From a virus (lineage: Duplodnaviria; Heunggongvirae; Uroviricota; Caudoviricetes): a DNA stretch of 38,045 nt. The notes below the pieces were generated by a model that ran no database searches, was not told the origin of the DNA, and saw only the letters and a list, made by a program, of their open reading frames with translations. The stretch's first letter is position 1, and every line of letters begins with the position of its first letter. Below are positions 1-38,045 of the stretch, one piece after another. Both the position numbers and the translations under genes were made by a program. The stretch covers positions 1 to 38,045 of the IMG/VR virus record IMGVR_UViG_2778261204_000006; one strand, written 5' to 3'.

Positions 1-624
1 TTACCGACAAACTCGTCGTAGATCAACTCTGGCAATCTGTTCTGCAGGTATATAGGTTGCCAGAGTTCCCCATCCGTCATCTGCCACACCACTATCGCAT
101 TCTGTCCAGATATTGCTCCCGACTGTAGTCCGGTGCGTGACGTATAAGATTATATCTCCCTTATTACCTAACGTGACAGGACCGTTAGGCCGTCCTGCAA
201 ATCGCCCGGGGGCTCGTGAAAGTAAAACAGAGCCATCCTTAAGATATACATAGATTTCAGAAAAAGTGAAATCCATCTGATTGAACAATGACTGCCACGC
301 TGAATGAGTATCATCAGACCATGAGATGTTTTGCTTATGCAGAAATTCATACATCCATTTGCGACCGTATCTGCGCCACAACGCACCGTAAATAAAAGCG
401 CAAAGAAGCGCTGGTGGCGTTGCAAGCCACGAATTCAGACCTGCCCACATAACAGCCTGGTAAACCATCATTGACAGCAGGCCAAAAATCAGCGTCGTAA
501 ATGTCACCTCGATGGGCTTGTGATGGTCTTTCAGGCCCACGTTCGCAATAAAATAGCCGATGTATCCACTGGTCAGTGTCACCAGTGTTGCCCACGGCAG
601 ATTCAGCAGGGATGCATCAAACAT
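1..624 (-). CDS. hypothetical membrane protein (about 3 predicted TM helices plus about 120 aa soluble C-terminal domain); moron-like cargo
   Basis: ORF track 207 aa; strong RBS GGAGG 5 nt before ATG at 624; immediately preceded by an intrinsic terminator; hydrophobic N-terminal segments in translation. Confidence 0.55.
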   Translation of the reverse strand: MFDASLLNLPWATLVTLTSGYIGYFIANVGLKDHHKPIEVTFTTLIFGLLSMMVYQAVMWAGLNSWLATPPALLCAFIYGALWRRYGRKWMYEFLHKQNISWSDDTHSAWQSLFNQMDFTFSEIYVYLKDGSVLLSRAPGRFAGRPNGPVTLGNKGDIILYVTHRTTVGSNIWTECDSGVADDGWGTLATYIPAEQIARVDLRRVCR

Positions 625-972: not shown

Positions 973-1359
973 TTAATCCCGGCTGTCATTCGGTTCATCA
1001 TCGTCTTCGAATAACTGCCCCTGCAACCGGCTGATTTCTTCCTTTCTTACGCGCTTTACCAGGTTGTAAATCCAGGGAACTGAAACCCTGAATCTGCGGG
1101 ACAGTTCGTGGTGGTTACGTCCGTTAAACGCCTCATAGATTTCACGGTCACGCTGGCTTATCTTCCATCTCATCCCCATAGGAAAATAAACGTTTTGCCC
1201 GCCCCAGACCTGCATCATGCGGTTCGCGACGGCCTGACCAATCTGGTCGGCAACTTCGGGCTCAATATCAATAATCTCGCGAACGGTCTCAGAGGTATGC
1301 TGTGCCAGTTCCACCAGGAGTTCCGGCCCCTTACTTCGAAACTGATTCAGGTCGCTCAT
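973..1359 (-). CDS. Mor/C-family transcriptional activator (phage middle/late gene activator)
   Basis: 128 aa; size and C-terminal HTH-like region fit the Mu Mor/C family; GGGAG RBS; located at the distal end of the early arm as in Mu. Confidence 0.65.
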   Translation of the reverse strand: MSDLNQFRSKGPELLVELAQHTSETVREIIDIEPEVADQIGQAVANRMMQVWGGQNVYFPMGMRWKISQRDREIYEAFNGRNHHELSRRFRVSVPWIYNLVKRVRKEEISRLQGQLFEDDDEPNDSRD

Positions 1360-3279: not shown

Positions 3280-3293
3280 TGAATGCCTCCCGG

Positions 3294-3590: not shown

Positions 3591-3599
3591 GCCGCGCCC

Positions 3600-4691: not shown

Positions 4692-4716
4692 ATTATGATT
4701 TCTCCGGTTGTGCTGA

Positions 4717-4986
4717 TTACCACAAAGATTCCGGCCACACGACGCGACAGCCGTGCAGTTCGAAAACGCCCTGACGGAAATGTCCCCTGTGGTCATGACC
4801 GGTATACAGATAACTGGCTTTCCCCTGTTCAAGCATGCGCATGCAATGCGCACTCCGGGAAACGCGGATGACAGGTTTATTGCCCCTGATGGTGATGCTT
4901 TGTACATCCGTGTTCGTCGCCATAAGCGCCATAATGGCTGACTGCACTTTGCTGATTTGCTGGTTGATACCTGTGATGGATTTCAT
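4717..4986 (-). CDS. hypothetical early protein
   Basis: 89 aa; ATG 2 nt after the stop of the B-like gene. Confidence 0.45.
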   Translation of the reverse strand: MKSITGINQQISKVQSAIMALMATNTDVQSITIRGNKPVIRVSRSAHCMRMLEQGKASYLYTGHDHRGHFRQGVFELHGCRVVWPESLW

Positions 4987-4988
4987 TC

Positions 4989-6155
4989 TTAAACCCCTTT
5001 GACAACGTCAGCGTTGACCTGTGGAACACCGATTTCAGCAGCCAGATTCATGGCGGCTATCACCAGGTTACTGACGGCCAGCGGATACAGCAGGCTGACC
5101 CTGTTTTTACGGTGACTTCCCGGATTGCTCAGGCGGGCACGTATGGCATCCACTGCGCCGGCGTCCATAATGTCCGTCAGTTGTTTACCGGCCCGTTGCA
5201 GTTTGAACGTCAGAAACTCTTCAAGGTTATTGTCCAGAGGCAGAAGTTCGACCACCTCACAGCGCTGAACGACTTCACGGACTTCCATATTGCGTTCAGA
5301 CAGTTTTGTCGCCAGTTCCGGCTGGCCAATCAGCACGATGGACAGCAGTTTTTTGAAACCGGACTCCAGCTCAAAAAAGCGTTTGAGGTGTTTCAGTGTC
5401 GGAATAGGCAGACTGTGGGCCTCCTCAATCACCAGAACGTGGCTGAACCCCGCCTGGCTGCTGTCTTTCAGGACGCGATGCAACTGGCGAAAGCGGGCGT
5501 CCTGACTGCGTCTGATGCTTTCCAGTGGTGCGATGGTACTGATAATGGCTTCGGCAATCGCTGCTGCCTTCAGGGTTTTCCCTTTCACATCGTTGTCTTC
5601 CATGGCGATGACGTATGGCTCGATAACAATCACCGGCGCATTCTCGCGGTTGATACGTTCAGTCAGGTCGCGGCGCAGCGTGGATTTACCCGCACCGGAC
5701 TCACCGATGACGGCCATAAACCCGCCATGACGGGCTGTCTGGTACAGCGCCTCACGCACGTAGCGAATGTCCGGGGTGGTGAACACATCATCAGAACCCT
5801 GCATGGCTTCGTCGGCGAACGGGTCACGGAAAAGACCAAACGCTTTTTTGGTTGCTGGAAATAACACCTGTTTTTTGAGTAACATATTCTCTTCCTCACT
5901 GAGGCTCGTTTTATCTGTGGTACCCGCTGTACGGGGCGTGGCCGCGCCCTGTACAGCATCAAAACTCTTCGTTGTATCAATCCCCTGACTTTCCAGCCAG
6001 GACGCAAGACGCCGGCGCACTTCTCCGGGGCGGGTGCGGGGCCACGCGTTATGATTCACAATCTGGGCCAGCGTGGCCTCAGAAACATCGACAGCTCTCG
6101 CCACCACCGCCTGTGGAATACGGGCCTCTTTCAGTTGCTGCTTCAGTACCAGCAT
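4989..6155 (-). CDS. transposition ATPase (Mu B-like AAA+ target-DNA activator)
   Basis: Walker A GESGAGKST in translation; N-terminal HTH-like region; ATG 6155 with GGAGGG RBS 10 nt after the transposase stop. Confidence 0.75.
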   Translation of the reverse strand: MLVLKQQLKEARIPQAVVARAVDVSEATLAQIVNHNAWPRTRPGEVRRRLASWLESQGIDTTKSFDAVQGAATPRTAGTTDKTSLSEEENMLLKKQVLFPATKKAFGLFRDPFADEAMQGSDDVFTTPDIRYVREALYQTARHGGFMAVIGESGAGKSTLRRDLTERINRENAPVIVIEPYVIAMEDNDVKGKTLKAAAIAEAIISTIAPLESIRRSQDARFRQLHRVLKDSSQAGFSHVLVIEEAHSLPIPTLKHLKRFFELESGFKKLLSIVLIGQPELATKLSERNMEVREVVQRCEVVELLPLDNNLEEFLTFKLQRAGKQLTDIMDAGAVDAIRARLSNPGSHRKNRVSLLYPLAVSNLVIAAMNLAAEIGVPQVNADVVKGV

Positions 6156-6165
6156 GTTTCCCTCC

Positions 6166-7935
6166 TTAGTTGCCGTTAACAATGCTGATAACGCTGCTGC
6201 GGGCCGGCGTGGTCAGCGTGGCCATGACTTCATCCAGTGCGGCTTCCGGTACGCCGTCCGGATACTGTGCCGTTAACTGGCGGTAATGTTCCGGCGTCCA
6301 GGTAAGGCCGTTGGCGCTGAACTTCCCGCGCAGGGCTTTCGCGGCCTCCACATGAGTCATGGGACGCTGTTCAGTGCGCGGTCCGCGTACGTCAGAGGCC
6401 TGACCTCGCTTCGGTATACAGGCCGGAAGTGTGGCGTCATCAATATGTTTATACGGGTCAAGCCGCCCGCCGAACGGCAGCGCCTTCGCCTTGCGTGCGG
6501 CAGCTGCATCTGCGGCGTTGTCTGTACCGGTGACCAGCGCTTCGGTTTCTTTTGCCGCCATCTGCGCCGGGGTTTCCGGCAGGGCTTTGTAACTTTCGCC
6601 AAATACCGCCGCGCCTTCAGCAAAGCCAAACTCGTTCTTTCTGACCTCTTCGACCAGGAAGAACGTCTCGTGGCCGTCCTCACCGGTCAGAACCACCTGT
6701 GCCACATCGCTGCGCCACGGGTTACGGGTAATCATCAGTTTTTCACCGACCAGTACGCCCGGTACCGTTGATACGTCAAATTCAGTGCCCCGGAACGAGA
6801 CACGAAGTTTTGGCGTGACTTTGCGGAGTTCTGGTGCTGCCACAGCCAGTTCACGGCATACCTCAACGGAAGGCGCTTTTTTCAGCTGCTCAGCAGTAAT
6901 CTTCAGCCAGATATCCGTGCGGGTTTTACCGTGGCGGCTGTGAACAGCTGTTGCGTTAAAGTGGCTGCGCCATTTCGCGGCCAGCGCGTTGAGTTCTTCC
7001 AGACTGTGAACCGGCCGGAACTTCAGACCCGGCTCCAGCTTGCGTTCGATAATGTCTCGCGCCTTTTCCACCTGTCCGGTGGCGCGGGCGTTATGCGGCT
7101 TGTGCGCTATCAGGTCGATGCCCAGTGAGCGGCACATGTTTTTCGTCATACCCGCGGTGTTTGCCGAGCCGGGGTCGAGATAGAGTATTTTCGGCACGCC
7201 GTGCAGCACGTCTGCGCCGCCACGCTCCTGCATGGCATTGATAAGCACAGAACACAGGTTCTCACCGGATTCCGCACCCGTCACATACTCAACGTAAATC
7301 CAGCCGCTGGCATGGTCGGTAATCTCGTAACTCCACACGCGGTCACTGGCGATACGGGCAAGGTTAGCGGGCTTGTTCTTGTAGAATTTCGCGCTGTCCA
7401 TCACCTGCAGCCCTTTATGTCCATTGCTCAGGTAGTAAAGCGTGCAGAGTGAGGCGTCAATCTGCCAGACATGATTGGGATGCAGACTGGCCACTTCGGT
7501 ATGTGGTGCAGGGGCATCCAGTTGTTCCGGGTGCAGGCCATAGTTACGCAGGGCGCGACTGATGGCATCTTCGGACAACGGGAAAAACTCACCGGTGGTT
7601 TCATCTGTTCTGCCTGCGGAGATAAAGCCGTTAGCCCGCAGGGTTTCCACTGCATCCGCGATGGAATAGAGACGCTTACCGTTCTTGCGGGTGGCCTCAC
7701 GTAGTGTGGCAGATATCAGCGCGGCTTCGTCGCGGGTCAGGGCGCTGCGCCCGGCATCGGCGCGTTTTTTGCGTTTATCAGTCACAGATACCTCCTTCAG
7801 CCTGCGCAGCAGAGTGGCGCGGGACATGCCAAGTTCAGCACAGGCAGCGTCGTATATTGCACCGCGTTTACCATGCCCCGCGTCACGTGCCGCGCGGGCT
7901 GTTTCAACCAGTTTTTCAGTCAGTGCCGGGGTCAT
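6166..7935 (-). CDS. DDE transposase (Mu A-like)
   Basis: 589 aa; acidic catalytic-motif candidates (VWQIDAS, YLDPGSANT); paired with a downstream ATPase as in Mu A-B. Confidence 0.85.
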   Translation of the reverse strand: MTPALTEKLVETARAARDAGHGKRGAIYDAACAELGMSRATLLRRLKEVSVTDKRKKRADAGRSALTRDEAALISATLREATRKNGKRLYSIADAVETLRANGFISAGRTDETTGEFFPLSEDAISRALRNYGLHPEQLDAPAPHTEVASLHPNHVWQIDASLCTLYYLSNGHKGLQVMDSAKFYKNKPANLARIASDRVWSYEITDHASGWIYVEYVTGAESGENLCSVLINAMQERGGADVLHGVPKILYLDPGSANTAGMTKNMCRSLGIDLIAHKPHNARATGQVEKARDIIERKLEPGLKFRPVHSLEELNALAAKWRSHFNATAVHSRHGKTRTDIWLKITAEQLKKAPSVEVCRELAVAAPELRKVTPKLRVSFRGTEFDVSTVPGVLVGEKLMITRNPWRSDVAQVVLTGEDGHETFFLVEEVRKNEFGFAEGAAVFGESYKALPETPAQMAAKETEALVTGTDNAADAAAARKAKALPFGGRLDPYKHIDDATLPACIPKRGQASDVRGPRTEQRPMTHVEAAKALRGKFSANGLTWTPEHYRQLTAQYPDGVPEAALDEVMATLTTPARSSVISIVNGN

Positions 7936-7950
7936 AGCTTGTCTTCCCTG

Positions 7951-8268
7951 TTATCCGATTCTGGCGGCAATTTTTCTGGCGAGGTCGCACAGTGTTTCGC
8001 CATCGCAGGTTTTCACCACGGTATTTACCGGTTGCGGTGCAACTACCGGGCGCAATGCTGACTGATTCTGCAGACGTCTTATCTGCTGCATCAGCATCAC
8101 CTCCATCGCCAGTACAAACGGGTGCGCCTCCTGTGCGGGTACGCAGATTTCACCGGAAGGGGTCACCACGCGGAAACCCTGCACCATTTCCGGCACCAGA
8201 TTACACAGTGCGTGCCCCAGTGCTTCCGGGCTGTCCATCAGGATATTTTGTGTGTTATTCGTGTTCAT
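7951..8268 (-). CDS. hypothetical early protein
   Basis: 105 aa; TAATG overlap with the upstream gene. Confidence 0.45.
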   Translation of the reverse strand: MNTNNTQNILMDSPEALGHALCNLVPEMVQGFRVVTPSGEICVPAQEAHPFVLAMEVMLMQQIRRLQNQSALRPVVAPQPVNTVVKTCDGETLCDLARKIAARIG

Positions 8269-9185: not shown

Positions 9186-9195
9186 TGATTACTCC

Positions 9196-9504
9196 TTACA
9201 AACGACTACCTGAAATAACTCGCTGGTTGATTTCGTTAATACGATCCTGTGCACGTGCCATCTCGTTACTGTGGGCCATAGCGATCTGCAGTAACTGGAT
9301 GCCCGGCGCGAAACGCCCGTTTTCCAGTTTCAGGGCCAACCCTTCTTCAATGAGGGTGTTGAGTGCCCGGTTGATGTTTGCCGGTGACTCGTGCAGTGCT
9401 GCCGCCAGTTCACCGTTGGAAATACCGTTCAGGGCATGACCACGCAGCGCTTTCAGTACCCGGAGGATGCGACTGCCGGAGCTTGAAACATTCGTCTTAC
9501 TCAT
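9196..9504 (-). CDS. winged-helix DNA-binding regulator (IclR-N-terminal-like fold)
   Basis: ORF 9196..9510; translation SRILRVLKALRGHALNGISNGELAAALHESPANINRALNTLIEEGLAL resembles wHTH domains. Confidence 0.45.
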   Translation of the reverse strand: MSKTNVSSSGSRILRVLKALRGHALNGISNGELAAALHESPANINRALNTLIEEGLALKLENGRFAPGIQLLQIAMAHSNEMARAQDRINEINQRVISGSRL

Positions 9505-9556
9505 CTGCATACCTATTTTTCAATATGTGATAATCTTTTTCGTATGCTGTATCTTT

Positions 9557-9745
9557 TTAAGCGGCGTCAGTGATGGTTTTTAATCCCAGCTTTACAGCGA
9601 TTTCATGGGCTTTGCCATAGTTCGCTTTTACCTGGCCATTCAGTACGCGGTAAACCTCCGCTCTGGTGTAGTTGTTCTGTTTTGCCCACTGGGTAAAAGT
9701 GATCCCATTGCGACGGAAATGAGCTTTGACCTGGTCTGCAGTCAT
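9557..9745 (-). CDS. small DNA-binding protein (Ner/Cro-like early regulator)
   Basis: 62 aa; first gene of the leftward early operon; strong AAGGAG RBS; divergent from the repressor-like gene. Confidence 0.55.
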   Translation of the reverse strand: MTADQVKAHFRRNGITFTQWAKQNNYTRAEVYRVLNGQVKANYGKAHEIAVKLGLKTITDAA

Positions 9746-9797
9746 TGTTGTCTCCTTGTTTGGTGCAATGATGTTTGCGTTATGTGTGATAGATTAT

Positions 9798-9815
9798 TGT
9801 CTAAAAATTTAGACA
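9798..9815. promoter_or_regulatory. palindromic operator candidate TGTCTAAA-AA-TTTAGACA in the divergent regulatory region
   Basis: 8-bp perfect inverted arms with 2-bp spacer, 12 nt upstream of the repressor start. Confidence 0.4.
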
Positions 9816-9826
9816 GAGCAAGTTTT

Positions 9827-10180
9827 ATGTCCATTAATTTAGAAAAAATACATGCGCGTCTCATTTCAGAATTAAAACGTGTTGGTCCTTTGGCGGTATC
9901 TAAGTCCACTGGTATCTCGCGGGCGACGATTTATAACTGGATGGAAAAAGGAAATATCCCGCTAGATAAACTGGTAGTTTTAGGAGCAGCAGGAGTAGAT
10001 GTTGCCTTCATTCTTACGGGTATGAGCACAGATGGTGAGGTGGAAATTCAGAACCGGATATCCCCCGAAAAACAAAAATTAATAGATACTTTTGACGACA
10101 TGACACCAGAGCAACAACGCTCATTTCTTGAGATTGGGCGATTCTATACTCAGCCAAAACCAGGAAAAATCGCAGGCTGA
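9827..10180 (+). CDS. HTH (XRE/Cro-C1 type) repressor-like protein
   Basis: 117 aa from ATG 9827; HTH segment KSTGISRATIYNWMEKGNIP; divergent from the early operon as c is in Mu. Confidence 0.6.
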   Translation: MSINLEKIHARLISELKRVGPLAVSKSTGISRATIYNWMEKGNIPLDKLVVLGAAGVDVAFILTGMSTDGEVEIQNRISPEKQKLIDTFDDMTPEQQRSFLEIGRFYTQPKPGKIAG

Positions 10181-10266: not shown

Positions 10267-10297
10267 CCGGAAAGCATTGTGCTTTCCGGTTTTGTTT
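10267..10297 (+). terminator. rho-independent terminator downstream of the repressor-like gene
   Basis: CCGGAAAGC / GCTTTCCGG 9-bp stem, 5-nt loop, followed by TTTTGTTT. Confidence 0.5.
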
Positions 10298-11061
10298 CAG
10301 AAGTTGCAGATTACCAGTTCACGGCGCGGCGTGGGTTTCCCCGCCAGACTGTAGTTGATATTCACCGTCTGTATGTTCAGTTCAGTGAACACCCGACGCA
10401 TCTGCGGAATGTCGTTCACCGAGATAATCATCTTTCCTCTGATGCACCGGGCCAGTTCTGCGAGTAGTGTGTAGTTCTCTTCAGGAAAATCCACACCATA
10501 GCCTTCCGTCCCCAGATAGGGCGGATCACAGTAGAACAACGTGTGCGGACGGTCATAACGCTTAATGCACTGGTGCCAGTCCATGTGCTCTATCACCGTT
10601 CTGGAAAGCCGCAGGTGTGCCGCTGACAGTTCTTCTTCAATACGTAGCAGGTTGAAGCGTGGCGGAGATGTGGTGGATGTGCCGAAGCTGTGCTCTGCCA
10701 CCTTGCCACCAAATGCCTGCTTCTGGAGGTAGTAGAACCGTGCCGCACGCTGGATATCCGTCAGTGTTTCTTCCGGGGTGATCTGCAGCCATTTGTAGAT
10801 CTGCCGGCTAACCAGCGCCCATTTGAACTGGCGGATAAATTCTTCCAGGTGATGTTTTACCACCCGGTACAGATTCACCAGTTCACCATTGATATCGTTA
10901 ATGACTTCGAGCTTGCCGGGAGTCTTGAGAAAATAGAGCGCAGCTGCGCCGCAGAACGGCTCCACATAACATTCATGCGCAGGAAACAGCGGCAGGATGT
11001 GTTTTGCCAGGCGGCGTTTGCCACCAATCCATGGAACGATGGGTAATGTCTGCGTTTTCAT
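10297..11061 (-). CDS. Dam-like N6-adenine DNA methyltransferase
   Basis: 254 aa; DPPY catalytic motif (LFYCDPPYLG) and SAM-binding FxGxG-like motif (EPFCGAAA). Confidence 0.85.
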   Translation of the reverse strand: MKTQTLPIVPWIGGKRRLAKHILPLFPAHECYVEPFCGAAALYFLKTPGKLEVINDINGELVNLYRVVKHHLEEFIRQFKWALVSRQIYKWLQITPEETLTDIQRAARFYYLQKQAFGGKVAEHSFGTSTTSPPRFNLLRIEEELSAAHLRLSRTVIEHMDWHQCIKRYDRPHTLFYCDPPYLGTEGYGVDFPEENYTLLAELARCIRGKMIISVNDIPQMRRVFTELNIQTVNINYSLAGKPTPRRELVICNF

Positions 11062-29978: not shown

Positions 29979-30190
29979 TGTTTCTTGAACATATTACCCG
30001 TGACGGAGAGCGCTGGGATTCGCTGGCATGGCAGTACTACGGTGACCCGCTGGGCTATCCCCGGATTATTGCAGCCAATCCGCACGTGGCCATCACGCCG
30101 GTGCTGCCCTCCGGGCTGTTGTTACTGATTCCGGTTATCGAGGCTGAAGAAGCCAGTACAGAAGAGGATATTGCCCCATGGCTGAGATAA
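29978..30190 (+). CDS. tail protein X-like
   Basis: 70 aa; RWDSLAWQYYGD segment resembles P2 gpX; GAGGAG RBS. Confidence 0.6.
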   Translation: MFLEHITRDGERWDSLAWQYYGDPLGYPRIIAANPHVAITPVLPSGLLLLIPVIEAEEASTEEDIAPWLR

Positions 30191-31347
30191 ACAGCACTGC
30201 ACAAGCCGCATCAGCGTTAACCGGCGTCAGCGATGTTCTGAGTCCGGTGTTCACGCTGTGGTATCTGCAGAAGAACATCACCACCGATATCGCCCCCTAT
30301 GTCACCCGCGTAACCTACAGCGATAACATCAAAAGCGAGTCCGATACCATTGAGGTGGAACTGGACGACACCGATGGCCGCTGGCTGGATAAGTGGTATC
30401 CGGGCAAGGGTGACACGCTGACGCTGAAAATGGGTTATCAGGGCGAGAAGCTGCTGTCCTGCGGTACGTTCTCTATAGACGAGATCGAGGTGAGTTCGCC
30501 CGCGTCCGTTGTCGCTATCCGGGGCGTGGCCACGTCGGTCAACAACGCCCTGCGGACAAAATCCAGTCGTGGTTTCGAGAGCACCACGCTGGCGGCCATC
30601 GCCGGACGGATTGCCAAAAAGCATCAGCTGAAGCTGGTTGGCAGTATTGAGTCCATCAAAATTGACCGGGTGACCCAGTATGCTGAAACGGACGTGGGCT
30701 TCCTGCGCCGACTGGCCAGCGAGTATGGTTATGCCGTGAAAGTGGTCAGCGACCAGCTGGTTTTTTCTCATCTTGCCACGTTGCGCGGTCAGGAGCCGGT
30801 CAGGCAGTTAAAGCCGCAGGATGTGGCCAGCTTTTCCCTGCGTGACACCATCAACCGCGTCTACAAATCCGCGAAGGTAAAACACCAGAAGAGCAGCGAT
30901 AAAAAGCTGATCGTTTATGAAGCTGATGGCGGTACCAGCGAAAGCGACAAACAAACCAAAGGCGGTAAGGTCACCAGTGCCGACTCACTGAAGGTCAACA
31001 GCCGCGTCAGTGACCCGGACAGCGCCCGGATTAAAGCAGATTCGGCGCTGGCCAGGCATAACGAATACCAGCAGAACGGCTCCCTGACGCTGATGGGGAC
31101 GCCCCAGTTGACTGCAGGCAACAAAATTGAACTGGTGGGCTTTGGTCAGTTATCCGGGCCATGGCTGATAACCACTGCCCGCCATGCGTTTGATCGTAAC
31201 AGCGGCTACATCACCGAACTGGAAGTGGCACGAGGGCCGGTCACGCAGGGCAAGGCGAAGAAAGGTAAAAAGACTGGCAAAACCCAGACGCTGACCGTCT
31301 ATCAACCGGACGGCAGTACGTCCACGGTAATAAAGGAGAAGAAATAA
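30178..31347 (+). CDS. tail/baseplate hub protein (P2 gpD / Mu P-like)
   Basis: 389 aa; ETDVGFLRRLA segment typical of gpD family. Confidence 0.8.
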   Translation: MAEINSTAQAASALTGVSDVLSPVFTLWYLQKNITTDIAPYVTRVTYSDNIKSESDTIEVELDDTDGRWLDKWYPGKGDTLTLKMGYQGEKLLSCGTFSIDEIEVSSPASVVAIRGVATSVNNALRTKSSRGFESTTLAAIAGRIAKKHQLKLVGSIESIKIDRVTQYAETDVGFLRRLASEYGYAVKVVSDQLVFSHLATLRGQEPVRQLKPQDVASFSLRDTINRVYKSAKVKHQKSSDKKLIVYEADGGTSESDKQTKGGKVTSADSLKVNSRVSDPDSARIKADSALARHNEYQQNGSLTLMGTPQLTAGNKIELVGFGQLSGPWLITTARHAFDRNSGYITELEVARGPVTQGKAKKGKKTGKTQTLTVYQPDGSTSTVIKEKK

Positions 31348-31859
31348 TGGCAGGCGTCACCCGTCAGGTCGGTACGGTCAGCGCCGTCGATGCCGACAAG
31401 GTACAGGCCCGTGTTCGTTTGCCGGAATGCGATAACCTGCGCACTAACTGGCTTAACGTGCTGCAGCGCAATACCCAGGATAACAAGGATTACTGGCTCC
31501 CTGACGTGGGGGAGCAGGTTGAGGTGCTGCTCGATGCCAACGGCGAGGATGGCGTCATTCTGGGCGCGGTGTACTCAGAAGTCGATAAACCGCCGTTCAG
31601 CGACAAAAATGTCCGGGGCACAAAATACGCTGATGGTGCTGAGTTCAGCTATAACCGCGCGACCCATACGCTGACGGTTAAAGGCGGTATCGAGCATGTG
31701 GTGATCGAGGTTGCGGTGGGTATCAACCTGAAGGGGAAAACTATTGATTTGACCGCTGACACCACCACGGTGAACGGCGACCTTGAAATCAACGGCAATG
31801 CCCACTCGACAGGCAGCATGCTCTCTGACGGCCAGAACTCCAATCATCACTCCCACTGA
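31347..31859 (+). CDS. baseplate spike protein (gpV-like)
   Basis: 170 aa; AAGGAGA RBS. Confidence 0.8.
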   Translation: MAGVTRQVGTVSAVDADKVQARVRLPECDNLRTNWLNVLQRNTQDNKDYWLPDVGEQVEVLLDANGEDGVILGAVYSEVDKPPFSDKNVRGTKYADGAEFSYNRATHTLTVKGGIEHVVIEVAVGINLKGKTIDLTADTTTVNGDLEINGNAHSTGSMLSDGQNSNHHSH

Positions 31860-31873
31860 CCTTCTTAAACGCC

Positions 31874-31912
31874 TTTAATATCGGCGTTCCCGCACAGGGG
31901 CAATACTGCCCC
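31874..31912 (+). promoter_or_regulatory. candidate internal late promoter upstream of the baseplate W gene
   Basis: CCTTTAATATCG at 31872 and ACTGCCC at 31905, 32 bp apart. Confidence 0.35.
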
Positions 31913-31913
31913 C

Positions 31914-32261
31914 ATGAAAACAACCTCAGTATTCTGGCAACCGGCTCTGCAGGCCCCCGGCGAAATCGTCCGGGGGCTGGATGATATCTGGCAGGCTATT
32001 CAAATCATCCTGCGTACTCCTCGCGGCAGCGACCCGCATCGCCCGGAGTTCGGCAGCAATCTGCACCTTTATATCGACTGGCCTATTGACCGGGCCATTC
32101 CGCATGTGGTGCGCGAATCCGTCGATGCCATCCGCAGCTGGGAGCCTCGCTGCCAGCTTATGTCGGTCAAACCCGCCGTCGACGGCGAACATCTTACGCT
32201 CCGGGTGAGCTGGAAAGGCTCTGACGGACAGCCCCGGACTCAGGAGTTGCTATGGCGCTGA
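31914..32261 (+). CDS. baseplate protein W (GPW/gp25 family)
   Basis: 115 aa; IILRTPRGSDPHRPEFGSNLHLYIDWP motif. Confidence 0.8.
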   Translation: MKTTSVFWQPALQAPGEIVRGLDDIWQAIQIILRTPRGSDPHRPEFGSNLHLYIDWPIDRAIPHVVRESVDAIRSWEPRCQLMSVKPAVDGEHLTLRVSWKGSDGQPRTQELLWR

Positions 32262-33355
32262 CAGAACCCGATTTTATTGAACGTGATGCCGACAAAATCA
32301 CGGCTGAAATGATTGCTCAGTACGAAGCCGCAACCGGCAAGACGCTGTACCCCGCTCAGGCTGAGCGCCTGTTGATTGACCTGTGGGCATACCGCGAAAT
32401 GCTGGTCAGGGTAGCGGCGCAGGAAGCGGCCAAACAGAATCTGGTCGCCTTTGCCCGTGAGCCGATGATTGATTACCTCGGTGAACTGGTCGGTGTATAT
32501 CGCCTGGCCGCACAGCCTGCCACCACCACGCTCCAGTTCTCCGTGGATGAGGCACTGGCCATTGACGTGCTGATTCCGGCGGGTACCCGCGTCAGTGCTT
32601 CCGACAGCATCATTTTTGCCACCGACACGGACGTGGTGTTAAAGGCCGGATTGCTGCTGGTCAATACCACGGCCACCTGTACCGAGCCGGGGGCCGCTGG
32701 CAACGGCTGGCAGCCTGCACAGGTCAGTCAGTTGCTCGATGAAATTGATAACGTCGACCTGCAGGTGACCAATCTGGCGGCCAGTTCTGGCGGTTCAGAG
32801 CAGGAAGACAATGACAGGCTCCGCGAGCGTATCAAGCTGGCCCCGGAGTCATTCACCAACGCCGGAAGCCGTATGGCATACCGCTTTCATGCCATGCAGG
32901 CCCATCCCAACATCGTCGATGTTGCGGTGCTTTCCCCGGTTCCCGGCACCGTAGAACTGTATCCGCTGCTCAGCACCGGCCTGCCGGACGACAGCATCCT
33001 CACGCTGGTAGAGAGTTTCTGCTCGGACGAAAAAGTCAGGCCGCTCACTGATACCGTGCGGGCTAAAACACCTGTGCAGGTGGATTACGCCATTGAGGCC
33101 AACATCACTATCTATCGTGATCAGGATGCCAACTCGATAAAGGACAGCGCCAACAGCGCCATACAGAACTGGGTGGCGTCCCGTACCGCCACGCTGGGGC
33201 GCGATATTGTCCCCAGCCAGATTATCAGCGTTCTGTCCGTTACCGGGGTCTATCAGGTCGAACTGGTGACACCGGTGCTGAAGGTGGTGGCAGAAAACGA
33301 ATGGGCAAACTGTACGGCGATCACTCTTAACATGACCGGGGTGTCCGATGGCTGA
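32252..33355 (+). CDS. baseplate protein J
   Basis: 367 aa; follows W as in P2/Mu baseplate modules. Confidence 0.8.
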   Translation: MALTEPDFIERDADKITAEMIAQYEAATGKTLYPAQAERLLIDLWAYREMLVRVAAQEAAKQNLVAFAREPMIDYLGELVGVYRLAAQPATTTLQFSVDEALAIDVLIPAGTRVSASDSIIFATDTDVVLKAGLLLVNTTATCTEPGAAGNGWQPAQVSQLLDEIDNVDLQVTNLAASSGGSEQEDNDRLRERIKLAPESFTNAGSRMAYRFHAMQAHPNIVDVAVLSPVPGTVELYPLLSTGLPDDSILTLVESFCSDEKVRPLTDTVRAKTPVQVDYAIEANITIYRDQDANSIKDSANSAIQNWVASRTATLGRDIVPSQIISVLSVTGVYQVELVTPVLKVVAENEWANCTAITLNMTGVSDG

Positions 33356-33926
33356 GCCGTTACAACTTCCGCCACCGCTTGAGGGTGATATCAGCCTCAG
33401 AACGCTGGGAAGACTGGCCGGGCGGCTGGATAACATCGACCTGAGCGTACTGATGGTCTATCTCGTCGATATTGTCGACAGTTCCGCGCTGCCATGGCTG
33501 GGCGAGCAGTGCTCGCTGTTCGGCGATGGCTGGGAGTTGGCGGAGTCGGACGATGTACGCCGCATGCTTATCAAATCCGCTATCGAGCTGCACCGCTACA
33601 AAGGGACGCCGTGGTCAATCCGGGAAATCATCCGCCGTTTCGGCTTTGGCGAAGTGGATCTGATTGAAGGCACTGGCCAGATCGGCTACGACGGCAAACA
33701 CACTTACAACGGGCTTTTCGTCCATGGCGATGCAGAAGCCTGGGCGGTCTATCGCGTCATTCTTCAACAGCCCATCACTAACGATCAGGCCGCGTTGTTA
33801 CGCCAGACGCTCGCTGCTTTTGCTCCGGCCCGCTGCCATCTGGCGAGCCTTGAGTATCAGTCTGTCGCCATTCGCTACAACAACACCGTCAACTACGACG
33901 GCAGCTATAACCACGGGAGCAGTTAA
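33348..33926 (+). CDS. tail protein I-like (baseplate)
   Basis: 192 aa; follows J. Confidence 0.7.
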   Translation: MAEPLQLPPPLEGDISLRTLGRLAGRLDNIDLSVLMVYLVDIVDSSALPWLGEQCSLFGDGWELAESDDVRRMLIKSAIELHRYKGTPWSIREIIRRFGFGEVDLIEGTGQIGYDGKHTYNGLFVHGDAEAWAVYRVILQQPITNDQAALLRQTLAAFAPARCHLASLEYQSVAIRYNNTVNYDGSYNHGSS

Positions 33927-33928
33927 TT

Positions 33929-34771
33929 ATGGCAAACCTACCTGAAACCCCGCAGTGGGAAGACGGCATCTATCAGATTGAGGTCTCTGACCCCGTTCTG
34001 GGCGGGCCTGACGGGATTTCTAACCGCCAGGGTAAACAACTGGCCAGCCGCACGCTGTACCTGAAACAACAGGTTGAGAAAGGCGGTACAGACCTTGCGA
34101 AACACATCGCGGCAGCAGACCCGCATACACAGTACGCACCGAAAGCCAGCCCGACATTCACCGGCACGCCAACAGCGCCCACGCCTGCAAATAGCGATAA
34201 CAGCAAGAAGCTGGCGACGACGGAGTTTGTGGCCAAAGCACTTGCGGCGCTTGCAGGCAGCGCCCCTGAAACGCTGGATACGCTTAAAGAGCTGGCGGAT
34301 GCCCTCGGTAACGATCCGAATTTTGCGACCACGGTGCTTAACAAACTGGCGGAGAAGCTGGCCAAAGACCAGAACGGCGCAGATATTCCTGACCCGGCGC
34401 TCTTTGTCAAAAACCTTGGTTTAGGGGAATCGGCGAAAATGCCTGCTGCGACAGCATTGGCCAGCAGTGCTGGTAACATCGCTATTCCAGTATTAATTGG
34501 TGGAGTACAACGAACAGCACTGCTTCAGTGGAAGATGGTATCAGTGCCGCAATCAGCAGACGGTAACATGGTAGTGGTTGACGACTCATGGCCGGTTGCC
34601 TTTCCTAATGCTTGCCTTTCCATCAATCCTTCGCTGTCCAGTTCTTTGATTTACGCGACCAGTGGAGCACCTTTTGTCAGCGCAGCGATTGTTGACCGGG
34701 TCAAATTCAAAGCCGCTTGCGCATACACGAAATCTAATTCAACAGTAACAGTATGGGGAGTGGGATATTAA
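33929..34771 (+). CDS. tail fibre protein (constant N-terminus plus currently expressed variable C-terminus)
   Basis: 280 aa; crossover repeat lies in frame at codons KNLGLGE; C-terminal part inside invertible segment. Confidence 0.75.
   Translation: MANLPETPQWEDGIYQIEVSDPVLGGPDGISNRQGKQLASRTLYLKQQVEKGGTDLAKHIAAADPHTQYAPKASPTFTGTPTAPTPANSDNSKKLATTEFVAKALAALAGSAPETLDTLKELADALGNDPNFATTVLNKLAEKLAKDQNGADIPDPALFVKNLGLGESAKMPAATALASSAGNIAIPVLIGGVQRTALLQWKMVSVPQSADGNMVVVDDSWPVAFPNACLSINPSLSSSLIYATSGAPFVSAAIVDRVKFKAACAYTKSNSTVTVWGVGY
34408..34429. repeat. left inverted repeat (gix/hix-like recombination site) CAAAAACCTTGGTTTAGGGGAA
   Basis: 22-bp perfect match to the reverse complement of 36241..36262. 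Confidence 0.75.
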
Positions 34772-35214
34772 TGACAGACTATGTATTCAGCCCGGCTGAA
34801 AATGCTTTTTATCTTGTGGCACTGAAAGACGATTATTTATCTGCTGGCACATGGCCGTCAGACGGCATCAATATAGATGCTGAAGATGCGCTAGTTTTCA
34901 TGGGGGTGCCTCCCGAAGGTAAAGTGCGTGGCATTGGTGATGATGGGTTGCCTTGCTGGGCTGATCTTCCGCCACCTACGCATGAAGAACAACTCGCAGC
35001 GGCTGACTCAGAAAAGCAGTCGAGAATTGACCAGGCCAACGATTATATGAATGGTAAGCAGTGGCCTGGCAAAGCAGCAATCGGGCGACTGAAAGGTGAC
35101 GAACTGGCTCAGTATAATTTGTGGCTTGATTATTTGGATGCGCTGGAAGCGGTTGATACTGCCAGCGCGCCAAATATCAATTGGCCTACACCTCCGGTCG
35201 GGCAGGCCAGCTAA
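34771..35214 (+). CDS. tail fibre assembly protein (Tfa/U-like)
   Basis: About 147 aa from ATG 34771 (TAATG overlap with fibre stop); conserved Tfa C-terminal pattern. Confidence 0.75.
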   Translation: MTDYVFSPAENAFYLVALKDDYLSAGTWPSDGINIDAEDALVFMGVPPEGKVRGIGDDGLPCWADLPPPTHEEQLAAADSEKQSRIDQANDYMNGKQWPGKAAIGRLKGDELAQYNLWLDYLDALEAVDTASAPNINWPTPPVGQAS

Positions 35215-35788
35215 CATCAGGAGCCGTCGAAACATCGACGGCTTTAACTGCAGTTTTATAAGCCATCCACGATGACAGTTTCTTTTTGCTTTCTTCGCTG
35301 ATATCACCGAGCATCAGCTCTACCCGCCAATCCGAGGTAAGATCATCTACCTGAGCGAGGAGCGTTTGTCGGTGTTGTTCTGCATCAGCAATATCACCTT
35401 GATGTTTTGCAGCAGAATCCGTGACCCATTTATCTCCGTCCCATTTATCATACGGTGATGCTGGAGCTGTGGGGGTTGTACCTTCGGGATAATCTCCCAG
35501 TGCCGTCACTACAACCTGTTGCATTGTCTCAATGTTATAAACGGTTTGACCTCTGTGATCGGTTATATATTCCCATGATGAAAGGTCTGCTGTACGGCAA
35601 ATGGCAAAACCCTCATTATTTTCACCTGGAGCATCAATGCAAGAATTGGCAGGAATACCAACCCCCACGGCGAGATACTCAACGGTTGAAGACAGATATT
35701 CAAGCGTCTCACCATCGAAGTTATAGACGGTGATTTCCCCTGCAACTATAGCGATCATGTCCTGGTTTAATTCAGCTTTAGCCATCAT
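35186..35788 (-). CDS. alternative tail fibre assembly protein (Tfa', inverted orientation)
   Basis: 200 aa; C-terminus VDVSTAPDVSWPARPEV parallels the plus-strand Tfa C-terminus. Confidence 0.7.
   Translation of the reverse strand: MMAKAELNQDMIAIVAGEITVYNFDGETLEYLSSTVEYLAVGVGIPANSCIDAPGENNEGFAICRTADLSSWEYITDHRGQTVYNIETMQQVVVTALGDYPEGTTPTAPASPYDKWDGDKWVTDSAAKHQGDIADAEQHRQTLLAQVDDLTSDWRVELMLGDISEESKKKLSSWMAYKTAVKAVDVSTAPDVSWPARPEV
35223..35250 (+). terminator. hairpin terminator candidate at the convergence point inside the invertible segment
   Basis: GCCGTCG-aaacat-CGACGGC 7-bp stem followed by TTTAACTGCAGTTTTAT. Confidence 0.35.
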
Positions 35789-36262
35789 GCAGCCCTCACA
35801 ATGTAGTTAAATGCAATATTCCGCGCACGGGTTTCTGTCGCTGTTCGTACTGAGCGGGAGGCATCAAACGTCCAGTTTGCAGCACCATATCCACCATCAG
35901 TGGACGGAGTTAAACCTAAGGATAAAAGCATTCCATCCTGACGGAATGGGCCGGAGTAAACGGTATCCTTGAAAAGCTGAGTGCGACCAAACGAACCGAC
36001 AATGTTCTGGATGGAGTCTGACTGAGCAGACAATAGGCTACGCCCCGTATCAACTCCGCGCCCGTCATCCCATCCACGGATAAACTCCCCGCGTAGATCA
36101 GGCAGTCTGAGCGCCGGATAGGCCAGTGCCAGCTTAGGGTACTGGGAGGCGGTAAACGCAGCCCCATTGCATTTGAGCCACCCTGTTGGTGGTGTCGCTG
36201 ACGGCCATGGAATGGGCACGCCAACCGGCAATGCAGAGCCTTCCCCTAAACCAAGGTTTTTG
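35785..36262 (-). CDS. alternative tail fibre C-terminal segment (Sv'-like), promoterless until inversion
   Basis: Reading frame through the right repeat encodes KNLGLGE as in the plus-strand fibre, then a distinct C-terminal domain (PDLRGEFIRGWDDGRGVD). Confidence 0.65.
36241..36262. repeat. right inverted repeat (gix/hix-like recombination site)
   Basis: TTCCCCTAAACCAAGGTTTTTG, reverse complement of 34408..34429. Confidence 0.75.
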
Positions 36263-36328
36263 GAAAAGCGGTTACACATAGCGAAATCTGTAAAAATCCT
36301 CCCGCCGCGACATAGAGGAGGAGAATTG

Positions 36329-36910
36329 ATGGCCGTCATTGGTTATATCCGTGTATCAACAATCGACCAGAACAGCGATTTACAGCGTAATGCACTCACA
36401 AGCGCAAACTGTGACCGCATTTTTGAAGACCGCATGAGCGGAAAAGTTGCCAGCCGCCCCGGTCTGAAACGCGCTTTAAAGTGCGTTAATAGCGGAGACA
36501 CCCTGGTCGTGTGGAAACTGGACAGGCTGGGGCGCAGCGTTAAGAACCTGATCGCACTGATATCAGAGTTACATGAACGCGGTGCCCACTTCCGCTCTTT
36601 AACAGACAGTATTGATACCAGCACAGCCATGGGGCGTTTCTTTTTCCATGTGATGTCGGCACTGGCGGAGATGGAACGTGAACTGATCGTCGAACGAACA
36701 CTGGCCGGGCTGGCAGCGGCCAGAGCACAGGGACGCATAGGTGGAAGGCCCAACGCATTAAAGCCGCATGAGCAGGAACAGATTGGGCGGCTATTGGCTA
36801 AGGGGCATACCCGCCAGCAGCTGGCCATTATCTACGGGGTGGGGTTATCTACACTCTACCGGTATTTTCCGGTAGATGGTCAGAGGAAGGATGACGCGAT
36901 AGGATTGTAA
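36329..36910 (+). CDS. serine recombinase DNA invertase (Gin/Hin/Pin/Cin family)
   Basis: 193 aa; N-terminus YIRVSTIDQNSDLQRNAL with catalytic Ser; TLVVWKLDRLGRS and C-terminal HTH; GAGGAGGAG RBS. Confidence 0.9.
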   Translation: MAVIGYIRVSTIDQNSDLQRNALTSANCDRIFEDRMSGKVASRPGLKRALKCVNSGDTLVVWKLDRLGRSVKNLIALISELHERGAHFRSLTDSIDTSTAMGRFFFHVMSALAEMERELIVERTLAGLAAARAQGRIGGRPNALKPHEQEQIGRLLAKGHTRQQLAIIYGVGLSTLYRYFPVDGQRKDDAIGL

Positions 36911-36944
36911 TTCTTTTGCAAATATTGAAACGCCGCAGCGGTGC

Positions 36945-36987
36945 CATTTATCTCACGGAATGGGCGCATTTATCGCGCGGCGCATCA
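36945..36987. repeat. prophage right terminus with two CATTTATC motifs 22 bp apart (candidate transposase-binding sites)
   Basis: Motifs at 36945-36952 and 36967-36974; element ends ...GCGCATCA at about 36987. Confidence 0.5.
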
Positions 36988-38045
36988 GTCATCAGGCCGA
37001 GCGTAATCGTACCGGCAACAATTGACGGAAACAGCAAGAACAAACCGAAAACGTTATCGACCTGCAAATAGAGAATGCGGGCGATGTTGAAATACATATA
37101 GTGAAAATAGAGGCGAAAATAGTTTTTCCGTACGGCGCTAAACAGCTCGCGTACCGTAGGCGGCGTCGCGCGCGTGGCATCGTCTTCACCATAAACCAGC
37201 TCTTTACGGTAGGCGGCCTCTACTCGCTGGTTTTTAAACTCCAGCCCCGGCAGTTTGATCCCTACCACTGCCAGCAATCCGGTCCCCATCAGCGACCAGA
37301 CGATAGCGGCAATCACCAGACCATACGGAATGTGCCCGATAATCGGCAGCTCCGGCACATGCGCGGAGAGCGTTACCAGCACCGGCAGGAAGGCGATCAA
37401 CGTCATGATGGCGTTGATAAAACTGACGCCCATATTCTCCAGCGTTGAAGCAAAACGCATGGTGTCTTCCTGCACACGCTGTGCGGCACCTTCGATATGA
37501 CGCAGTTGTTGCCAGTTCGCCATGTAATATTCGTTCATCGCCGTACGCCAGCGGAACACATAGTGACTGACAAAGAAGTTGTTCAGTACACTGATCACCA
37601 CCGCGATCAGCGCAATCCCCAGAAAGACGCCCACTTCGCGGTAAAATTGTTCGATAGTGACTTTATGCGGCGAACTTAGCGCGGTTTGAATCAGATCATA
37701 GAACGGTGCATACCAGGCGTTGACGGCGACCCCGACTTCCACCAAAAACCAGGTGACGAAGATGATCAGTGCAGTACCGAGTATTGACCAGTATTGCCAA
37801 CGGTGCGGGCTGTAGATAAACCAGAAAAATGCAAAAAGTCCTACGCAAACAATGTAGTAAGCGTAAAAAATCAGGAAATCCAACGACCAGAAACGCGCGG
37901 CGCTAATCGGGATCTGCCCGGAAGCGCCGGTGATACGCGCCACCCAGTCACCCCCACCGGCTTGCCAGAAGATAACGGCAATCAATGCCCAAACAAAGGC
38001 CGAGAGAAAAAACGCTCCCGGCTTTGGGAAAAAAGACTTAAACAT
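36948..38045 (-). pseudogene. sbmA: sbmA (peptide antibiotic transporter) truncated by prophage insertion; last 13 codons are phage-derived
   Basis: Translation matches recalled SbmA from [10 protein letters not shown] through about residue 352 (…TITLGLMT), then diverges to [12 protein letters not shown] and stops at 36948. Confidence 0.7.

Follow-up and report, generated by a model that had tools for sequence, protein, structure and literature searches.

The E. coli gene sbmA, which encodes a peptide-antibiotic importer, is broken off in the 38,045-nucleotide stretch of DNA analysed here (the window) by phage sequence that abuts its coding region, and this locus raises the question of how the phage came to lie within the gene and what marks its end. 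An earlier note on this DNA had read the site as the right terminus of a prophage inserted by Mu-type transposition, with two terminal motifs spaced like the end-binding sites of Mu.

Junctions with sbmA and sites of insertion

The features at the right junction are as follows.

36988..38045, minus strand: 5' part of sbmA, codons 1-352 plus 2 nt of 406 codons, 100% identical in many E. coli genomes
36948..38045, minus strand: truncated SbmA fusion ORF of 365 aa, comprising SbmA residues 1-353 and 12 phage-encoded residues
36945..36987, plus strand: right terminal region (attR) of 43 b, with both repeat boxes and CA-3' at 36986-36987
36988..36993, no strand assigned: right copy of the target-site duplication GTCATC; intact sbmA has a single GTCATC here

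Alignment with an uninterrupted sbmA (L001), as the earlier note had proposed, fixed the phage/host junction at 36987/36988, there being no match to the gene left of 36988. The phage thus entered sbmA at codon 353, and the last 53 residues of SbmA are lost. The expected pattern of SbmA identity to about residue 352 followed by 13 phage codons was borne out, with the refinement that the first of these codons is ACT in place of ACG and so restores Thr353 by chance; 12 phage residues and a TAA stop follow. The right phage terminus reads ...GCGCATCA-3' and finishes GCATCA, and bases 36986-36987 are the terminal CA-3' already described for this element. The contig of the Phi06_2974 B virion stops 2 nt after the same terminal CA, which fits the packaging of variable host DNA.

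The left junction falls outside the window, 366 b before its position 1, on the public contig from which the window derives (NMNK01000003.1, 347 kb), the locus on this source contig showing 0 mismatches to the window across 10,624 b. It reads sbmA...ctgcGTCATC/TGATCAGAC, where the phage starts TGATCAG and the longer phage stretch is TGATCAGACATGAGATAAATGAAGGGGGATCCGTGAGATAAAT. The 3' part of sbmA does not continue at the right junction; it adjoins the left phage end, at a distance of 37,353 bp along the contig, and the SbmA fusion ORF and the left junction are 37.35 kb apart. The element is thus shown to be 37,353 bp long, with 5'-TG...CA-3' termini. The six target bases GTCATC are duplicated on either side of it, and apart from this interruption both parts of sbmA are intact. 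The left junction carries the short target-site duplication and the matching inverted terminal sequence for which the earlier note had advised a search, the latter as inverted GATAAATG boxes at the same distance from the TG terminus.

Related copies occupy at least 15 different host contexts. In about 24 complete E. coli genomes the same right end adjoins host genes that vary from genome to genome, and the same left arm occurs with ten different flanks. A 6-bp duplication was present in all six complete copies examined, namely this one and five E. coli relatives, each at a different host site (GTCATC, AATAAT, GGTGAA, GCAGGT, GACAAT and ATGCAT), and the five other copies likewise have TG...CA termini. 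The variety of sites, together with a 6-bp duplication in every copy, indicates transposition and not site-specific integration.

Repeat boxes at the phage termini

Two boxes were defined at the right end.

36967..36976, minus strand: outer box R1, putative transposase-binding core, GCGATAAATG read inward, 12-21 from the terminus
36945..36954, minus strand: inner box R2, GAGATAAATG read inward, 34-43 from the terminus

The two CATTTATC motifs reported earlier do start at 36945 and 36967, 22 b apart, and are taken to be the cores of these two 10-bp boxes, which read G(C/A)GATAAATG inward; R2 also contains the TAA stop (36948-36950) of the SbmA fusion ORF. On both strands of the window CATTTATC occurs six times against 0.91 expected, a count reached by 0 of 100 shuffles. 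A further pair, at 35427 and 35442 (15 b apart), falls within a tail-fibre assembly gene, and the 8-mer by itself is therefore not diagnostic. The left end has boxes of the same GATAAATG type in inverted orientation, at 12-21 and 35-44 from the TG terminus.

The R1-R2 spacing of 22 differs from the 23 seen in every E. coli relative examined, owing to a 1-b deletion in this copy, and at the left end of 22 distinct relatives the spacing is 23 in 18 and 22 in 3. The suggested Mu-like end spacing holds to the extent that the cores at the right end of Mu are also 22 apart; the usual value in BcepMu/B3-type phages is 23, however, and the 22 found here arose by deletion. An end with a spacing of 22 could be impaired, and the loss of 1 b between R1 and R2 may have immobilised this copy.

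A two-box layout is common to BcepMu, B3 and phiSHP3 (in phiSHP3, at the right end), and equivalent repeats have been described at the ends of BcepMu and phiE255 (PMC2920897). In 80 loci of distant relatives, with transposases 50-94% identical and 1.58 Mb searched in all, the pattern TG-N9-GAGATAAAT-N14-GAGATAAWT was found once, at the expected place and in the expected orientation, in 34 loci, while the opposite orientation gave 1 match over the same 1.58 Mb. The boxes are held in place down to about 50% transposase identity, and the spacers between them vary freely. From this position and conservation, and by analogy, we infer that the boxes are end-recognition elements bound by the transposase.

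Transposition genes and kinship with Mu, BcepMu and B3

The following genes and segments bear on the mode of insertion.

6166..7935, minus strand: DDE transposase (TnpA), 589 aa, rve core as sole Pfam match, phrog_310
4989..6155, minus strand: AAA+ ATPase partner (TnpB/MuB analogue), 388 aa, Pfam AAA_22, phrog_296 'DNA transposition protein'
973..1359, minus strand: Mor-family late activator, Pfam Mor (E 5e-41), near the left end of the inverted early arm
36329..36910, plus strand: Gin-type serine DNA invertase, 193 aa, Pfam Resolvase and HTH_7, last gene before the right end
34402..36268, no strand assigned: invertible tail-fibre segment with 28-nt inverted repeats at 34402-34429 and 36241-36268

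Over 98-100% of its length the transposase is 68% identical to those of BcepMu and phiE255 and 56% identical to that of B3, and identity to Phi06_2974 B and PhiKM reaches 92.7-98.8%. Mu was absent among the 69 relatives of the transposase detected by tblastn in 50,697 phage records, BLASTP against MuA showed no similarity (E 0.21), and no Mu-specific Pfam domain was detected in the protein. The match to the phrog_310 profile, to which MuA also belongs, begins at about position 130, and the transposase therefore seems to be without the N-terminal part of MuA. A PDB sequence search gave weak matches only, to retroviral integrase cores. The AlphaFold model, built from 26 sequences of 67-93% identity, was poor (mean pLDDT 61, pTM 0.38, catalytic core disordered); Foldseek with this low-confidence model returned TnsB, IstA and MuA, including the Mu transpososome chain 4fcy_A at E 4e-5, with good E-values but TM-scores of only 0.12-0.19, and such matches may be taken to support the general transposase class only.

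The ATPase gene adjoins that of the transposase and is syntenic with BcepMu gp08 and B3 ORF11, its profile phrog_296 also being matched by MuB, and the Mor-family gene occupies the position of BcepMu gp01 and B3 ORF1. The minus strand encodes the early genes (1-9510), whereas a repressor-like ORF (9605-10180) and, from about 11.4 kb onward, the late genes are on the plus strand, so that a regulatory region separates the arms and the early/transposition operon is inverted toward the left end. An inverted left arm of this kind is documented for BcepMu/B3-type phages (PMC3091646, PMC8705779). Beyond Mor the left arm holds extra cargo genes, and for a 207-aa cargo protein neither PADLOC nor Pfam gave a match.

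The earlier argument that integrase and tRNA are both missing was upheld in that no tRNA gene and no tyrosine integrase were found in the window; a serine recombinase does adjoin the end, but it is the tail-fibre invertase, the only recombinase detected. It is 71% identical to Mu Gin, and its gene stops 77 b from the element end. The segment that it would serve contains divergent tail-fibre and assembly ORFs, and its 28-nt repeats, which contain AAACCAAGGTTTTTG, we take to be hix/gix-like as judged against hixL.

With Mu the element shares the life style of a transposable temperate phage, TG...CA ends, what would be more than one transposase site at each end, an AAA+ partner for target delivery, homologues of Mor, GemA and Gam, Gin with an invertible tail-fibre segment, and the assignment of transposases to phrog_310 and ATPases to phrog_296. 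The right end of Mu repeats a CACGAWAAAYG core at 11 and 33, and the register is the same here. The right terminal 23 nt are identical to Mu at 18 of 23 positions, a value reached by 0 of 200,000 shuffles, and the R1-R2 region agrees at 28 of 50 positions without gaps, whereas the left end matches that of Mu at 7 of 23, which is not above chance (shuffle p 0.73). Mu differs further in its 5-bp duplication against 6 bp here (6/6 copies), in its gene map, where the repressor stands leftmost and every other gene points rightward, against the inverted early arm of this phage, in spaced L1-L3 sites at the left end (PMC3145075) where this phage has two adjacent boxes at both ends, and in a com/mom module between gin and the end, none being found here. 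The relation between MuA and the transposase of this element is remote, resting on phrog_310 and on Foldseek with the weak model, and is not detectable by BLAST.

Nearest to this element stand the Burkholderia phages BcepMu and phiE255 (genus Bcepmuvirus) together with BcepMu-like prophages of Enterobacterales, represented by those of Salmonella Typhi CT18 and Sodalis (SGLp2) and by the Escherichia phages PhiKM and Phi06_2974 B. The genes are colinear with those of BcepMu. Mor, GemA, the ATPase and the transposase are encoded in the inverted early arm, after which come regulatory and lysis genes, Mu-like head genes and P2-like tail genes. Size is also alike, at 37.35 kb here. TG...CA ends are described for BcepMu-type prophages (PMC2628397), and two boxes of about 10 bp, at 12-21 and 34/35-43/44 on both ends, are likewise shared (PMC2628397, PMC2920897). 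The differences are an acyltransferase at the end of the right arm in BcepMu, where a Mu-like invertible tail-fibre segment with gin is found here, a box core of GATAAAT here against GATATTT in BcepMu, a right-end spacing of 22 and not the 23 of BcepMu-type phages, and the extra left-arm cargo. B3 (Beetrevirus; Tn552-related transposase family) likewise has the ATPase partner, an inverted early arm, TG...CA ends and, as reported in PMC8705779, a 6-bp target duplication; the same paper assigns a footprint of 6 bp to B3/Tn552-family transposases and one of 5 bp to Mu. The right end of B3 begins TGTAGCGCGGCGCGAAATTT and is identical to this right end at 15 of 23 positions, its box sequences having diverged to GAGAAATA and GCGATAAAG; B3 is, however, a siphovirus with different tail genes. 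The GenBank records of D3112 and JBD25 neither start nor stop at TG/CA termini and were therefore unsuited to end comparison, and a literature search for the target-site duplication of BcepMu turned up only unrelated transposon papers.

Taken against these data, four other accounts of the locus differ in what they can explain. The junction could be an assembly chimera, the source being a draft assembly, but one 347-kb contig carries both junctions with the spacing that the element requires, the pieces of sbmA join up exactly save for the 6-bp duplication, and the exact fusion protein is recorded on three contigs, the source contig among them; the probability of an artefact is negligible. We assign as little to site-specific integration by the serine recombinase with sbmA as its attachment site: for all that this gene (36329-36910) is the last before the junction, its product is a Gin/Hin-type invertase with its own inverted crossover sites round the 1.8-kb tail-fibre segment, relatives carry the same end in many different genes, the junctions share just the 6-bp duplicated host sequence, which is different at each site, and a sequence search of 5,426 complete E. 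coli genomes gave 0 with the exact phage/sbmA junction.

The two remaining accounts concern the boxes. A genuine Mu-type (Muvirus, MuA-dependent) end, at which the motifs would be MuA R1/R2-type sites, is very unlikely: the lack of MuA similarity by BLASTP, the absence of Mu from the tblastn relatives, a Pfam assignment confined to rve, a duplication of 6 bp and not 5 in every copy, the inverted early operon with its regulatory region between the arms and the chance-level match of the left end all speak against it, and they outweigh the TG...CA ends, the 18/23 identity in the same box register, the kinship of the Gin proteins, the common phrog_310 and the Foldseek match to 4fcy_A. Slightly less improbable, but still a small chance, is a real junction beside which the CATTTATC pair stands by coincidence or in another role, such as part of a gin terminator or a host-factor site. 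The motif is short and A+T-rich and another pair does lie in a coding region (35427 and 35442); yet the left end, which has no gin gene, carries the same boxes at the same distance from the terminus, they are kept to about 50% transposase identity while the spacers vary, the orientation control stands at 34 against 1, and BcepMu and phiE255 have equivalent repeats at their ends (PMC2920897). The element is thus, with high probability, a complete Mu-like transposable prophage of the BcepMu/B3 branch, inserted in codon 353 of sbmA by DDE transposition. Of the Mu-type transposition first proposed, transposition stands; the branch is that of BcepMu/B3, with a Tn552-related rve transposase and a 6-bp duplication, and not the MuA type with 5 bp.

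Proposed mechanism and significance

The proposed mechanism starts from two direct-repeat boxes per end, at nt 12-21 and then about two helical turns further inward, mirrored at the left end. On the model of Mu and Tn7, the boxes would be bound by the N-terminal domains of the rve-family transposase (6166-7935), and transposase molecules at both ends would bring the ends into synapsis and expose the terminal CA-3'OH. The neighbouring AAA+ ATPase (4989-6155) would supply the target, to which the two ends would then be joined at phosphates with a 6-bp stagger, and repair of the stagger would yield the 6-bp duplication.

How far the terminal plan reaches beyond this branch can be addressed only tentatively. 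The plan TG(A/T)(A/T)GCG(G/C)(G/C)GC(G/A)CGA(A/T)AA recurs in Mu, this phage, BcepMu, B3 and phiSHP3, each of which has a second CGA/AGA-TAAAT core 22-23 nt further in. On sequence resemblance the right end may share descent with Mu attR, beyond mere analogy, a reading that we consider possible but rather doubtful. If it were true, the end-recognition architecture would be older than the split between MuA-type and Tn552/B3-type transposases, and it would have been conserved better than the transposase proteins themselves.

For the host, removal of the last 53 SbmA residues has probably left the lysogen deficient in the uptake of peptides through this importer, as judged from the truncation. 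The substrates of SbmA include microcins B17 and J25, bleomycin and proline-rich peptides, and resistance of the lysogen to them is plausible after this loss. The phage type is already known, and the present example is ordinary but well supported; its value lies in being a clean, resolved case with both junctions, the 6-bp duplication and conserved two-box ends. The consensus TG-N9-GAGATAAAT-N14-GAGATAAWT can be used to mark exact prophage ends in genome annotation, and the insertions described here present BcepMu/B3-type transposable phages as active insertional mutagens in E. coli.

Junctions and extent of the prophage in sbmA

The first 1,058 nt of sbmA, from its 5′ end, lie on the minus strand at the end of the window, and megablast against 5,426 complete E. 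coli genomes showed that 36988-38045 matches sbmA only, at up to 100% identity, with no extension left of 36988. Across the junction an intact sbmA reference reads ...ggtaatctgcGTCATCaggccgagc and the window reads ...gcgcggcgcatcaGTCATCaggccgagc; since the two differ, the phage/host junction lies between 36987 and 36988. Phage DNA occupies positions 1-36987 and has ...TCA-3′ as its last bases, in agreement with the CA-3′ terminus proposed in the earlier note. That note also had SbmA identity stop after about residue 352 and give way to 13 phage codons. The alignment bears this out, as residues 1-353 of the 365-residue fusion ORF equal SbmA and are followed by 12 phage-encoded residues and a TAA stop, residue 353 being Thr by chance, since AC+T, like the native ACG, is a Thr codon. 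The insertion deletes SbmA residues 354-406 and appends 12 unrelated ones.

The source contig was reached by searching for exact copies of the protein encoded by the leftmost gene, which occurs on ten contigs; one of these, NMNK01000003.1 (GCA_002468025.1), shares 10,624 bases with the window and is identical to it throughout them. An uninterrupted sbmA 3′ end was looked for at the junction, and instead a 59-residue SbmA fragment, then yaiW, adjoins the left phage end on this contig, which also encodes the truncated SbmA fusion protein 37.35 kb from the left junction. Written in the orientation of the window, the left junction passes from ...aacgttggtaatctgcGTCATC directly into TGATCAGACATGAGATAAATGAAGGGGGATCCGTGAGATAAATAACG..., which sets the prophage at 37,353 bp, its start 366 b beyond the left edge of the window, with TG...CA termini (TGAT...ATCA) and a 6-bp direct target duplication, GTCATC, that stands at both flanks and as a single copy in intact sbmA. 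The target duplication that had been sought at the left junction is thus present.

Features of the window
1..624, minus: cargo protein, 207 aa, hydrophobic N-terminal half; phrog_12870 (unknown function)
From about 9.5 kb leftwards to position 1, minus: early operon, including transposase, ATPase, Gam, GemA and Mor
4989-6155, minus: AAA_22 ATPase, 388 aa (Pfam AAA_22)
6166-7935, minus: rve-domain transposase, 589 aa (Pfam rve)
10297-11061, minus: Dam-like type II/orphan DNA adenine methyltransferase (PADLOC MTase_II, E 1e-110), between the two arms
From about 11.4 kb, plus: late genes for lysis, terminase, Mu-like head, P2-like contractile tail and tail fibres
34402-34429 and 36241-36268: 28-nt inverted repeats, 93% complementary, containing AAACCAAGGTTTTTG and bounding a 1.8-kb tail-fibre segment
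36329-36910, plus: Resolvase/HTH_7 recombinase, 193 aa (gin), sole recombinase of the window, with 71% identity to Mu Gin
36948..38045, minus: SbmA fusion ORF, 365 residues

The cargo between Mor and the left end takes up window positions 1-970 and the 366 b of the source contig that precede the window; next to the gene of the 207-aa protein, for which Pfam and PADLOC gave no match, it has a small ORF of about 78 aa. In several relatives (EcPF16, MSB1_9D, HH107) no gene stands between Mor and the end, so that the Mor-to-end region is variable and moron-like. The methyltransferase gene occupies the same place in relatives.

Insertion sites and family placement

The last 888 b of the phage were found in 36 E. 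coli records (at least 80% covered in 24), and the host genes flanking these right-end copies are unrelated, among them a carbamate kinase gene, pgaA, glcF, csgC, gadC and hybA; the left arm has ten different flanks. Five further complete copies were delimited, all with TG...CA ends and each with its own 6-bp duplication.

Insertion sites and target duplications of the five further copies
EcPF16: glcF, AATAAT
GON1437: carbamate kinase gene, GGTGAA
MSB1_9D: pgaA, GCAGGT
HH107: csgC, GACAAT
CFS3292: between malZ and proY, ATGCAT

Six duplications of differing sequence, TG...CA ends and unrelated host sites thus support the earlier reading of insertion by transposition. That reading had leaned on the lack of a tRNA gene and of an integrase; no tRNA gene was found in the window and no integrase is present, but one recombinase is, a Gin-type invertase. 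The 193-aa protein was considered as an integrase and rejected, because it is Gin-like and lies beside the 1.8-kb tail-fibre segment with its inverted repeats; it is a tail-fibre invertase. The repeats resemble hixL, and the region has the layout of a Mu-G-like invertible cassette, with alternative fibre and assembly genes between hix/gix-like repeats. Since BcepMu is without such a module, the right arm is mosaic.

A tblastn search of 50,697 phage records returned 69 relatives of the transposase, including Escherichia phage PhiKM (98.8% identity), Phi06_2974 B (92.7%), BcepMu and phiE255 (68%), Pseudomonas B3 and B3-like phages (about 56%) and phiSHP3 (43%). Mu was absent from these matches, and direct BLASTP against MuA gave E = 0.21; by Pfam the transposase has the rve domain only. 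Gene order is colinear with that of BcepMu, inverted early arm included. BcepMu-type prophages with an rve transposase have TG...CA termini (PMC2628397), phiE255 and BcepMu carry 23-bp imperfect direct repeats at both ends as proposed transposase sites (PMC2920897), whole-left-arm inversion is common to gamma-proteobacterial relatives (PMC3091646), and the B3/Tn552-family transposase footprint is a 6-bp duplication, versus 5 bp for Mu (PMC8705779). Every testable defining feature of the BcepMu/B3 branch was found in the prophage. Mu proper was rejected because three of its defining features are absent from the prophage: the transposase is not of MuA type, the duplication is not 5 bp long, and the genes do not have the orientation seen in Mu.

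One database record touches on this group. OM835952.1 (Klebsiella phage KP12 clone KP12_2), filed under Vequintavirinae, matches window 30000-37000 (tail and gin) at 94.8% identity over 73% of the query, breaks off some 50 nt before the true right end is reached, and has a BcepMu-like gene map throughout (rve transposase, Mor/GemA-type genes, P2-like tail). It is probably a co-induced prophage, and its taxonomy label looks wrong.

Terminal boxes and the Mu right end

The two CATTTATC motifs that the earlier note placed 22 bp apart, at 36945 and 36967, are both there; this 8-mer occurs six times in the window against 0.91 expected, a count reached in 0 of 100 shuffles. Read inward, the left end is TGATCAGACATGAGATAAATGAAGGGGGATCCGTGAGATAAATAACG and the right end TGATGCGCCGCGCGATAAATGCGCCCATTCCGTGAGATAAATGGCAC. 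Box 1, G(A/C)GATAAATG, lies at nt 12-21 of both ends, and box 2, GAGATAAAT(A/G), at nt 35-44 of the left end and nt 34-43 of the right; reverse-complemented, the right-end boxes are the two CATTTATC motifs. Matching motifs had been predicted for the then unseen left end, where they are indeed found, inverted and equally far from the terminus. A second CATTTATC pair, 15 nt apart at 35427-35449 (cCATTTATCtccgtcCCATTTATCa), falls within the invertible segment, in the tail-fibre assembly ORF 35186..35788 on the minus strand, and may be chance or codon-driven.

The same box plan is seen in BcepMu, whose left end reads TGAAGAGAGGTGAGATATTTCC...GCGCGATATTTCC and right end TGAAGCGCGGCGCGATATTTCAG...GCGCGATAAATTC, at both ends of B3 and at the right end of phiSHP3. 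We scanned 80 other-species loci with transposases 50-94% identical (Enterobacterales, Burkholderiales, Neisseriales, Pseudomonas, Rheinheimera, Alcanivorax and others) with the pattern TG(A/T)-N6-10-GATAWWW-N13-18-GATAWWW. Exactly one match in the expected orientation was obtained in 34 loci, 2-8 kb downstream of the transposase gene, the position expected of a left end, and only one match in the opposite orientation over 1.58 Mb. Across 22 distinct ends (consensus TGAnnaGgngTGAGATAAATnnaanngnatanGcGaGATAAtTatGGG), the GATA of box 1 begins at nt 14 in 21, and box spacing is 23 in 18, 22 in three and 25 in one. Fixed boxes with drifting spacers are the pattern that would be expected of protein-binding sites. 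The right-end spacer, 36955-36966, reads CACGGAATGGG, where every close relative examined has CACGGAAATGGG or CACGGAAATAGG; the 22-nt spacing, one base shorter than the family-typical 23, is thus a local peculiarity of this right end. The lone opposite-orientation match, in Oceanospirillum beijerinckii (about position 3969 of that locus; TGTAGGGCCGCGAGATATTTCAG...GCGAGATAATT), lies upstream of the transposase gene and, given a GC-rich start like that of right ends, is perhaps not noise but the right end of an element that is adjacent or rearranged.

The likeness to Mu att-site spacing drawn in the earlier note is literally accurate for the right end. Read inward, the Mu right end (36668-36717 of the Mu record) is TGAAGCGGCGCACGAAAAACGCGAAAGCGTTTCACGATAAATGCGAAAAC; it shares 18 of its first 23 positions with this right end, a score that 0 of 200,000 composition-preserving shuffles reached, and matches window 36938-36987 at 28 of 50 ungapped positions (p about 3e-5). 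Both carry GATAAATG at nt 36-43, and the Mu core CACGAWAAAYG is repeated at nt 11 and 33, in the same 22-nt register. The right ends of BcepMu and B3 match Mu at 14/23 (p about 0.002), and a GC-rich start, TG..GCG..GC.CGA, is common to BcepMu, B3, phiSHP3 and this element. The left end showed no similarity to the Mu left end above chance (7/23, p 0.73). Shared descent or convergence may account for the right-end likeness. The similarity of BcepMu/B3-family right ends to Mu attR is the newest point of the analysis.

Probable mechanism and consequences for the host

The ends, the duplication, the random choice of target, the transposase and ATPase genes and the conserved boxes are observed. By analogy with Mu, Tn7 and IS21, N-terminal domains of the transposase would bind the two boxes of each end, molecules on both ends would synapse them, and the terminal CA-3′OH ends would attack phosphates spaced by 6 bp in a target that the ATPase supplies. 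PHROG 310 is matched by both MuA and this transposase and PHROG 296 by both MuB and this ATPase; the match to PHROG 310 starts at about profile position 130, so the transposase seems to be without the part of the profile covered by the MuA N-terminus. With a low-confidence model of the transposase (pLDDT 61) as query, the top Foldseek matches were all multi-domain DDE transposases, namely V-K CAST TnsB (8e-9), IstA (5e-7), the Mu transpososome chain 4fcy_A (4e-5) and Tn7 TnsB, a result that is supportive, not decisive, since TM-scores were low. The virion-derived sequence of Phi06_2974 B ends 2 nt past the terminal CA, which fits packaging of variable host DNA.

Taken as a whole, the finding is correct and well resolved; the group of transposable phages to which the prophage belongs is a known one, and the prophage is ordinary within it. 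For the lysogen, loss of SbmA function, and hence resistance, is likely.
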